The notes under the pieces are model-generated. The model worked only from the letters and a program-made list of their open reading frames with translations, did no database searches and was not told the DNA's origin. Below, piece by piece: positions 33,270 through 33,930 of a stretch of 64,000 nt of DNA; within the stretch, counting starts at the first letter, position 1; the number at the start of each line of letters is the position of its first letter. The stretch spans positions 49,285 through 113,284 of the IMG/VR virus record IMGVR_UViG_3300031555_003080. One strand, 5' to 3'. The position numbers were made by a program, and so were the translations under genes. The DNA is from a virus.

Positions 33270-33467
33270 TTATCGCTTATCTCCGAACAATCGTAAAAAC
33301 ATAAATGAGAATGTTCCTGCAATGAAGCCAGTGATATATACAAACTGCTCAGGCACAAATTCTGCACCAATAGCACCTGCGAAAATAGTTACCAGCCATA
33401 ACAGAAAGAAAATCCAACGACTCATATTATACCTCCTTGGGAATAGACTTTGTAATAATGGGTTCAT
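33270..33467 (-). CDS. small membrane protein
   Basis: 65 aa, hydrophobic. Confidence 0.35.
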   Translation of the reverse strand: MNPLLQSLFPRRYNMSRWIFFLLWLVTIFAGAIGAEFVPEQFVYITGFIAGTFSFMFLRLFGDKR

Positions 33468-33930
33468 CTACATAGCAGCTCAATGCGCAAGCCACTTTAA
33501 CTGCCTCGGCGGGCGAATGGCCTAAGTATAAAGCTGCAGAGGCATAATATTGACCAGCGCCAATAGAGAAATAATCATTCACTTCTCCAATATAGCCGCC
33601 ACTACAATAAAATACCTTATCTTTATATGCAATCAAATACTGATTATCCAACTTTTTCTCAACGCCGAACTCTTTAGATCTCCATTCCATAAATTCATAC
33701 ATATACTTTGTGAGTTCTCTGTCGTTCATGGCGAGAGGGGTGTGGTTTTCGGAAAACAATGCCATATGAATACCCTCATGTGCATAACCAGAAGTGCCAA
33801 TTAGCATACCATTTACTTCAAAAATCTTACCTCTGCCAACAGGAGTTTTATCAGTTTCTCCATGAACAATGATAGAGTCGGCGGACATTACAATACTGTT
33901 ATCGTAAATCTTTACAGCTACAACGCTCAT
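33427..33930 (-). CDS. HslV/proteasome-beta-like Ntn-hydrolase peptidase
   Basis: 167 aa; ..SIVMSADSIIVHGET.....LIGTSGYAHEGIHMALF.....YFSIGAGQYYASAALYLGHSPAEAVKVACALSCYVDEP parallels HslV (..LIAIGSGGPYAQAAARAL....). Confidence 0.6.
   Translation of the reverse strand: MSVVAVKIYDNSIVMSADSIIVHGETDKTPVGRGKIFEVNGMLIGTSGYAHEGIHMALFSENHTPLAMNDRELTKYMYEFMEWRSKEFGVEKKLDNQYLIAYKDKVFYCSGGYIGEVNDYFSIGAGQYYASAALYLGHSPAEAVKVACALSCYVDEPIITKSIPKEV

Follow-up and report, generated by a model that had tools for sequence, protein, structure and literature searches.

The gene and its predicted active site

This report concerns one gene in a 64,000-nucleotide stretch of viral DNA from IMG/VR record IMGVR_UViG_3300031555_003080 (positions 49,285 to 113,284 of that record; hereafter the window): an open reading frame (ORF) on the minus strand that starts with ATG, encodes 167 residues, and probably specifies a peptidase related to HslV and to BPH, the Betaproteobacteria proteasome homologue. 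A preliminary description of the window had placed an HslV/proteasome-beta-like peptidase here, and its coordinates and length agree exactly with the ORF listing. The features of the gene are given below; conservation refers to an alignment of 241 full-length homologues or, where stated, to an alignment and profile of 37 homologues (A1).

33427..33930, minus strand: coding sequence of the proteasome-family (HslV/BPH-like) N-terminal nucleophile (Ntn) peptidase, with its TAA stop at 33427..33429
33938..33946, minus strand: nine-base Shine-Dalgarno sequence AAGGAGGAG, read from the sequence, 7 nt 5' of the ATG (33928..33930)
33934..33936, minus strand: in-frame TGA two codons 5' of the ATG (extended-frame translation ..RRR*LMSVV..)
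33925..33927, minus strand: Ser2 codon, the predicted nucleophile Ser1 after Met removal, invariant in A1
33877..33879, minus strand: Asp18 codon, equivalent to Asp17 of the proteasome and HslV, 100% conserved
33826..33828, minus strand: Lys35 codon, equivalent to Lys33, 100% conserved and paired with HslV Lys33 by hhalign
33787..33798, minus strand: G45-T-S-G48 codons, the oxyanion-hole glycine motif, Gly48 100% and Gly45 93% conserved
33553..33561, minus strand: G124-A125-G126 codons, equivalent to the G-S-G motif of HslV and BPH, with Ala as the Ser129 equivalent and both glycines 99% conserved

Read 5' of the start codon, the minus strand is TAAGGAGGAGATGACTT-ATG. The placement of the Shine-Dalgarno sequence supports Met1-Ser2 as the true start of the peptidase, and, with the standard code, the in-frame TGA before the ATG excludes an N-terminal propeptide. 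The preliminary description had expected Ser, not Thr, at the mature N-terminus, and residue 2, downstream of that stop, is indeed Ser. Because Ser as the second residue permits Met removal by methionine aminopeptidase, this enzyme would cut off Met1, and the gene sequence supports Ser as the mature N-terminus.

The three motifs named in the preliminary description (LIGTSG, SIGAGQYYASAALYLG and CYVDEP) are all found in the protein, and a profile-sequence alignment places them opposite IAGFAGG, AIGSGGPYAQAAA and CIYTN of E. coli HslV; the aligned segments can also be written as SIGAGQYYASAA against AIGSGGPYAQAA and SCYVD against CIYTN. G45-T-S-G48 pairs with HslV AGFAG, so that its counterparts are Gly45 and Gly48 of HslV and Gly47 of the proteasome, and G124-A125-G126 is aligned to GSGG of HslV and GSGS of BPH. 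The distance from nucleophile to Asp, counted by eye, is 17 residues, equal to that in HslV and the proteasome.

Across the 241 homologues, Asp18, Lys35 and Gly48 do not vary and Gly124 and Gly126 hardly do, position 2 is occupied by Ser in 89% and by Thr in 10%, and residue 125 is Ala in 69%, Ser in 17% and Tyr in 8%. The letters MS open 219 of the 257 proteins retrieved, and MS or MT open 241 (fragments and mis-started gene calls are counted among the 257). Few further positions are conserved across this wide family, which indicates that selection is focused on the active site, and the exchange of Ser for Thr at a single position fits the role of a nucleophile. Six comparisons of the gene with its homologues in fetched loci gave non-synonymous differences (pN) of 0.09-0.38 against synonymous differences (pS) of 0.70-0.77. 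Synonymous change is saturated, and the corresponding dN/dS is at most about 0.04-0.21. Since non-synonymous changes lie far below synonymous ones, the gene is under strong purifying selection.

These data bear on the idea that the protein has lost catalysis and, with only the proteasome fold retained, serves in a structural or regulatory role. The alpha subunits of the proteasome, which are inactive, lack the catalytic Asp, Lys, Gly and nucleophile residues, whereas here Asp18, Lys35 and Gly48 are invariant and residue 2 is Ser or Thr while most other positions vary. Consistent with a dead protein are the loss of the Ser129 equivalent (Ala125), here and in most of the family, and the inertness of BPH in standard assays (PMC5777263). 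Weighing both, we find this explanation barely credible.

The family itself is large. A word-indexed search returned 109 homologues down to 41% identity, nearly all of 164-170 residues, and an exhaustive search of 1.84 billion cluster representatives returned 502 homologous representatives at E<=1e-3, 249 of them at E<=1e-10. Numbers of this size exceed chance by a wide margin, and the ORF is a real gene. The identical peptidase occurs on eight metagenomic contigs, the longest of 121 kb, and a 332-kb contig bears a member of its 90% cluster. In two distant homologues, P0165 (316 residues) and P0163 (283 residues), the peptidase domain is complete and is followed by a further 120-150 residues at the C-terminus; with its four CxxC pairs, the extension of P0165 resembles a zinc ribbon. 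These extensions may be true fusions or gene-calling read-throughs.

Fold and family

Profile searches place the protein in the proteasome superfamily at a distance. A Pfam scan returned no family even at E<=10, and hence no match to PF00227 (Proteasome), while PHROGs gave phrog_1040, 'peptidase HslV family' (E 1.7e-20, 74.8 bits), spanning residues 8-166 against profile positions 18-159 of 277. Compared with the PDB as a single sequence, the protein found Thermotoga HslV at E 0.023 only; the A1 profile found BPH at 1.1e-4, several HslVs at 4e-4 to 3e-2, and 20S beta subunits lower. The top matches of the profile in the PDB, the designed toroid repeat proteins 5byo and 4yxz, were discarded as repeat artefacts because their scores are made up of many matches of about 5 bits and 28 residues to one helix.

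An AlphaFold2 model built with A1 has a predicted local distance difference test score (pLDDT) of 91.9 and a predicted template-modelling score (pTM) of 0.89. Its strands and helices follow one another as in proteasome beta subunits, with both helix pairs, including helices at 50-59 and 70-88. In a Foldseek search of the PDB, BPH came first (template-modelling score, TM, 0.86; E 3e-10), followed by HslV (TM about 0.67-0.70) and then by 20S beta subunits. Sequence and model thus both predict the four-layer alpha-beta-beta-alpha fold of proteasome beta subunits and membership of the proteasome family (MEROPS T1) of Ntn hydrolases. BPH, HslV and 20S beta lead the matches; non-proteolytic Ntn proteins as best matches, which the preliminary description had named as its refutation, did not appear, and the assignment to the superfamily stands.

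Within this superfamily, what relation does the peptidase bear to HslV? It reaches 19.6 bits against a cut-off of 157.75 for one NCBIfam HslV equivalog (TIGR03692) and 18.2 against 137 for the other (NF003964). By this measure it is not an HslV orthologue: of the HslV/proteasome-beta-like label, the placement in the Ntn proteasome-beta superfamily stands, and HslV proper, with a score so far below the cut-off and no Pfam match, does not. It shares with HslV/ClpQ the aligned motifs, the 17-residue spacing from nucleophile to Asp and a short pore loop; it differs in having no hslU neighbour, in the replaced serine of the GSG motif, and in a structure nearer to BPH.

The partner of HslV was sought in the window by comparing about 40 of the larger ORFs with PHROGs or Pfam, by a Walker-A scan of ORFs of at least 60 residues, and with PADLOC. 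There is no HslU/ClpX-type gene in the scanned ORFs of the 64-kb window, and none adjoins the gene at 69 homologous loci. The absence of an adjacent HslU, noted in the preliminary description, therefore holds: the flanking genes encode a zinc-ribbon ORF, a 51-residue membrane ORF, an RNA ligase and a major-vault-protein-like (MVP-like) protein.

A true HslV that docks on a hexamer of HslU or CodX, supplied by the host or by an unseen phage gene, would degrade proteins in an ATP-dependent manner, as CodW does with CodX. In HslUV structures, HslV Lys28 binds the C-terminal carboxylate of HslU; the residue opposite it here is Pro, in a variable loop of low confidence. The pore loop, between helix 2 and the following strand (residues 89-96, GVEKKLDN), is HslV-like in length, its 8 residues being one more than in E. 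coli HslV and carrying no net charge, whereas BPH has about 9 extra acidic residues there; source databases, moreover, label relatives of the peptidase 'HslVU peptidase subunit'. CodW, the HslV of B. subtilis, has Ser1 and is active only together with its ATPase CodX (PMC5777263), and it offers a precedent for Ser1 as nucleophile. Against an HslV of this kind stand the equivalog score, the closer structural match to BPH, the lack of an HslU/ClpX-type gene in the window or beside the 69 homologous loci, and the Pro opposite Lys28. Together these make it distinctly unlikely.

The closest structural counterpart is BPH (PDB 5ovs, 5ovt, 5ovu; Fuchs et al. 2018, PMC5777263), which apparently works without a partner unfoldase. 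Like the peptidase, BPH has no propeptide and presents the Asp17/Lys/Gly constellation; Met removal exposes its nucleophile, as it would here. Ser1 as nucleophile is documented for CodW, for one Anbu, and for all BPH outside Betaproteobacteria (PMC5777263), where it takes the place of Thr1. The differences are also clear. The two proteins are only about 15-16% identical; the pore loop of BPH is long and acidic, with about 9 more residues, EDDLE among them, where the peptidase has GVEKKLDN; and BPH retains Ser139, the equivalent of proteasome Ser129, which hydrogen-bonds the nucleophile (PMC5777263), where the peptidase has Ala. BPH is chromosomal and lies in stress-regulated operons, whereas the peptidase gene is phage-borne, and BPH has been proven to assemble as a tetradecamer, with two heptameric rings, whereas the peptidase is known here from its sequence and a single-chain model. 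BPH is thus the best structural match, joined to the peptidase by a sequence link (E 1.1e-4, ~15% identity) such as is expected for a mere sister cluster.

This picture can be compared with the published catalogue of proteasome-like proteins, in which group I radiates from BPH and includes HslV, AAH, CPH, PPH, RPC and DPH (Fuchs, Alva & Lupas 2021, PMC8665760). PPH, AAH and CPH occur in phages, and AAH seems to have reached the genomes of Firmicutes and Bacteroidetes by way of phages (PMC8665760). With these and with PHROG 1040 the peptidase shares a compact, propeptide-free, proteasome-like form in tailed phages. PPH (Proteasome homologue of Phages and their Hosts) has ~140 residues and lacks helix H2 (PMC8665760); we rejected this identity for the peptidase, which has 167 residues and a predicted H2 at 70-88. 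AAH, which was compared, like CPH, by published description only, is compatible with the peptidase in its occurrence in Firmicute phages; the reference sequences for AAH and CPH are WP_035979212 and WP_008185288.

Viral carriers of the fold are not rare: BFVD holds 42 viral proteins that match it at E<=1e-3, among them proteins of Vibrio, Caulobacter, Gordonia, Pseudomonas, Serratia and Erwinia phages. A megablast search with 8 kb around the gene and a tblastn search at E<=1e-3, however, found no match in 50,697 GenBank phage records, and tblastn at E<=10 brought up only PPH-like or Ntn proteins of Proteobacteria phages at 25-29% identity (best E 5e-3). Since the GenBank phage relatives are so distant, the clade of Clostridia phages to which the peptidase belongs is so far known only from metagenomes and metagenome-assembled genomes (MAGs). 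The peptidase represents a new, metagenome-only clade of the catalogued phage-borne proteasome homologues, AAH and CPH having been compared by description only.

Neighbouring genes and candidate partners

The genes next to the peptidase, and the more distant genes of the window that might encode a partner, are the following.

33270..33425, minus strand: hydrophobic small ORF of 51 residues, beginning 1 nt after the peptidase stop
33899..34138, minus strand: zinc-ribbon ORF (CPNC..CPKC), overlapping the peptidase start by 32 nt
30761..33202, minus strand: MVP-like gene, 813 residues, 225 nt downstream of the peptidase
33266..33238, minus strand: promoter-like site before the MVP-like gene (consensus scan)
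30747..30714, minus strand: strong terminator-like hairpin after the MVP-like gene (consensus scan)
18165..19658, minus strand: second SPFH protein, 497 residues (Band_7 1.6e-17, flotillin 3.8e-4)
15272..16531: PhoH, a P-loop protein
20638..21144: AAA_33 kinase-like protein, a P-loop protein
3505..3909: small unannotated ORF with a P-loop (Walker-A scan)
48940..50052, minus strand: classical AAA ATPase, 370 residues (PF00004, E 2e-12)
48000..48782, minus strand: unannotated ORF of 260 residues, in the AAA-gene cluster (45507..50052)
47185..48000, minus strand: type II DNA methyltransferase, in the AAA-gene cluster
45507..47072, minus strand: DUF2828/DUF7788 protein, in the AAA-gene cluster

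We clustered the ORFs of 71 related loci and the window region (72 in all) by all-against-all BLASTP. No conserved partner gene emerged: no ORF cluster occurs in more than 25 of 69 loci, and at these loci the genes immediately upstream and downstream change from lineage to lineage, with macro-domain, dUTPase-like, ligase-like, Sak4-like ATPase and serine recombinase genes among them (some recognised by eye). The nearer relatives of the window share one gene order: RNase T, RNA ligase, small ORF, peptidase, SPFH-type gene, nicotinamidase, PRPP synthetase, YqeY and Thg1.

The two small ORFs that touch the peptidase gene are of local distribution. The 51-residue ORF, the Shine-Dalgarno sequence of which sits within the peptidase 3' end, has no match in Pfam or NCBIfam; it is called in L001-L004 and missing from L007, L009, L011 and L013, being kept only in near-identical phages. 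The zinc-ribbon ORF has a weak match to FmdB-type zinc ribbons and is found in the window and in L001-L004, and L007 and L008 have a different CxxC ORF of 52 residues in its place. In a Rosetta-stone test, a single comparison with the Cys-rich tail of P0165, its similarity was not significant (E 0.022).

The P-loop proteins of the list are the only ones that the scans of the window turned up. One of them is the classical AAA ATPase, the closest solved relatives of which, AFG2, p97 and Msp1, are protein unfoldases or translocases. If this ATPase drove the peptidase, the pair would form a minimal phage 'proteasome'. It lies, however, 15 kb from the peptidase, beside the type II methyltransferase and the DUF2828/DUF7788 protein, and its C-terminus (..LHYAV) does not carry the HbYX docking motif with its penultimate Tyr. 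It occurs at 142 IMG/VR loci with 47-86% identity; between the 80 of these that were listed and the 57 peptidase contigs there is no shared contig, a comparison limited by the search pattern. Because of the distance, the missing HbYX motif and the lack of shared contigs among the matches listed, we do not regard the AAA ATPase as a dedicated partner, and we hold a two-component machine of this kind to be highly improbable.

A different partnership was raised in the preliminary description, which had suggested that the peptidase acts with vault-like or SPFH proteins. The vault-like neighbour is real. The 813-residue product matches Pfam MVP_shoulder (2.7e-21) and Vault_3 (1.8e-8), and its residues 313-793 align with rat and human MVP in the PDB (E 1.6e-20), covering late repeats, shoulder and cap-helix. 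Homologues of 828-832 residues are present in at least 17 related IMG/VR phage loci, and there is no match in PHROGs, NCBIfam or PADLOC. Together with the 497-residue protein and with Band_7 proteins of 300-317 residues seen in L007, L011, L038 and L053, this means that the phage group encodes up to three SPFH architectures. The PADLOC defence models match neither the peptidase nor the MVP-like or flotillin-like protein.

On this suggestion, the peptidase would be a cargo or partner protease of SPFH cages (MVP-like, Band_7 or flotillin-like), comparable to HflK/C-FtsH and stomatin-NfeD. We searched for SPFH genes with iterated hidden Markov models seeded on the MVP-like, two Band_7 and flotillin-like proteins, and collapsed the loci to 23 lineages at 85% peptidase identity, across which no neighbouring gene is conserved. 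An SPFH gene lies within 373 nt of the peptidase in four of these lineages: it is MVP-like in the window and in L009 (225 and 91 nt downstream), and Band_7 in L007 (373 nt downstream) and L011 (99 nt upstream). Adjacency thus occurs in two orientations and with two architectures, and the consensus scan shows no terminator-like site between the peptidase and the MVP-like gene. In five other lineages, however, the nearest SPFH gene is 2-7 kb away, and in the remaining 14 these models find none within 10 kb. Moreover, the four adjacent lineages are the closest relatives (at least 59% identity), so that common descent suffices to explain the synteny. The MVP-like gene has its own promoter-like and terminator-like sites, a hint that it is transcribed separately, although consensus scans of this kind do not prove function. 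The peptidase itself carries no extension for targeting, and its other immediate neighbours are unrelated. The partnership is therefore not borne out by its distribution, and a phage-built compartment in which an SPFH or vault-type cage holds or gates a proteasome-like Ser1 protease is quite improbable. If true, it would be a viral counterpart of HflK/C-FtsH and stomatin-NfeD, and the peptidase would be the first enzyme cargo proposed for a vault homologue of a prokaryotic virus.

Phage setting and proposed function

The window is a piece of a large phage, in agreement with the phage origin given in the preliminary description. It encodes both subunits of topoisomerase II, an NAD-dependent DNA ligase, thymidylate synthase, DHFR and RNase H among its replication and nucleotide genes, together with an endolysin, PhoH, NAMPT, Thg1, RNA ligase and homing endonucleases. 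Its NAD salvage set is complete (NAMPT, NAD synthetase, a PRPP-synthetase-like and a nicotinamidase-like protein), and NADAR and macro-domain proteins are also encoded. The features of this setting are as follows.

22736..23182, minus strand: NADAR, in the NAD/ADP-ribose block (22736..30655)
23179..24051, minus strand: NAD synthetase, in the same block
23996..24535, minus strand: macro domain (weak match), in the same block
24825..26300, minus strand: NAMPT, in the same block
29274..30128, minus strand: PRPP-synthetase-like protein, in the same block
30125..30655, minus strand: isochorismatase/nicotinamidase-like protein, in the same block
26588..27445, minus strand: Thg1-like tRNA-His guanylyltransferase, of the tRNA-repair-type set
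28802..29251, minus strand: YqeY/GatB-like protein, of the tRNA-repair-type set
34047..35456, minus strand: RNA ligase, 469 residues, of the tRNA-repair-type set
39668..40498, minus strand: nucleotidyltransferase, of the tRNA-repair-type set
3845..4702, 27449..28345 and 35429..35995, minus strand: three homing endonucleases, one GIY-YIG and two HNH-type
43685..45313, minus strand: protein of 542 residues with two N-terminal S-layer-homology (SLH) domains (6.7e-18)
48835..63895, minus strand: 37 tRNA genes, all on this strand
56601..57656, minus strand: aldo/keto-reductase with a C-terminal 4Fe-4S dicluster domain, amid the tRNA array

The block at 22736..30655 looks like a phage set for NAD reconstitution and reversal of ADP-ribosylation. 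Phosphoesterases (19869..20672, 21477..22172 and 38592..39476) accompany the tRNA-repair-type set. The homing endonuclease at 35429..35995 lies between an RNase T-like exonuclease and the RNA ligase and is missing from the syntenic loci L007, L009 and L011. Among the tRNAs, one has the anticodon CTA (52416..52506), which would read UAG, and one TCA (61296..61369), which would read UGA; as tRNAs of the suppressor type, these two hint at a recoding of stop codons in other parts of the genome. Within the window, the large genes are open throughout when translated with the standard code. An unusual tRNA at 54587..54660, to which ARAGORN assigns an 'anticodon' of two bases, scores 34.6 bits against Rfam tRNA.

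The SLH protein fits a host with an S-layer or an SLH-anchoring cell wall (Firmicutes), and relatives of the peptidase occur in MAGs labelled Eubacteriales, Lachnospiraceae, Clostridiaceae and Clostridia. From these labels and the SLH protein, we infer that the host probably belongs to the class Clostridia, a weak inference given that the binning of phage contigs into MAGs is unreliable. The genome of an isolate, Clostridiaceae bacterium strain 9, has one relative on a scaffold of 89 kb (L075). In L053 and L054 (IMG/VR 3300018493_002631 and 3300031555_010877) which form one lineage, the peptidase gene is followed after ~300 nt by that of a large serine recombinase (10800..12380), a sign that some carriers may be temperate.

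Our reading of these results is that the peptidase is a stand-alone, BPH-like, self-compartmentalising Ser1 peptidase of the HslV/BPH-centred group I, carried by a large phage that probably infects Clostridia; we put its probability at roughly 0.6. The use of the N-terminal nucleophile together with its own alpha-amine, a Lys and an Asp is established for the proteasome. In the phage enzyme, peptide bonds would be attacked by the free amine and hydroxyl of Ser1, with Lys35 and Asp18, in the manner of HslV, BPH and the beta subunits of the 20S proteasome. Subunits of 18.4 kDa would assemble into a two-ring barrel, either a 12-mer or a 14-mer, with the active sites inside, and the enzyme would act without a dedicated phage unfoldase on peptides or on a few unfolded or specific proteins of host or phage. 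Because the gene stands among genes for NAD salvage, ADP-ribose removal and tRNA repair, its action may fall in the early or host-takeover phase of infection, or in counter-defence.

Several observations weigh against this reading. The sequence links to solved members of the proteasome family are weak (E 1e-4 to 1e-2) and Pfam is blank; the G-S-G motif is replaced by G-A-G, with Ala125 as the Ser129 equivalent. The nucleophile chemistry of BPH is confirmed by an epoxomicin adduct, yet BPH was inert in vitro on peptides and casein (PMC5777263), so that an intact active site is no guarantee of general protease activity. The search for an unfoldase covered 64 kb of a genome that is probably longer than 120 kb. 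Finally, the timing and the substrate are guesses suggested by the gene neighbourhood, that is, by guilt by association.

The behaviour of BPH also leads to another possibility: the peptidase may be a site-specific processing protease or a transpeptidase, like Rrp, which cleaves the bL27 leader, or connectase, a ligase with the proteasome fold. In S. pneumoniae TIGR4, Rrp (SP_1145) specifically trims the ribosomal protein bL27 of its N-terminal leader, and the authors of that study mention many phage proteins that share the fold of Rrp (bioRxiv 10.64898/2026.08.10.744006). By description, it resembles the peptidase in being a proteasome-like Ntn protease from a phage-like mobile element in a Firmicute, and the host group of the present phage is probably Firmicutes as well; in the literature surveyed it is the sole mobile-element proteasome-like protein with an experimentally assigned substrate. 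The inactivity of BPH on generic substrates suggests narrow specificity in this branch, and with the Rrp precedent it makes a narrow processing role a serious alternative to bulk degradation. Yet Rrp, likened here by description only, is Anbu/20S-beta-like with additional domains, whereas the peptidase is a compact group I protein, and the window holds no structural genes with bL27-like leaders. On balance we consider such a role rather unlikely, and favour the stand-alone BPH-like peptidase.

To our knowledge, orphan proteasome homologues, such as BPH, AAH, PPH and their kin, occur widely, and a substrate or role is known only for HslV, connectase and Rrp. The present peptidase adds a clade to this catalogued class, not a new kind of system, and a specialist would not be surprised by it. 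Its importance lies elsewhere: a strongly conserved, propeptide-free Ser1 enzyme is encoded in what appears to be a host-takeover or counter-defence region of abundant large gut phages, which argues that viruses use a minimal proteasome-type enzyme in infection. As a small protein of 18 kDa that is easily tested, it would offer a convenient entry to the role of the orphan proteasome homologues.

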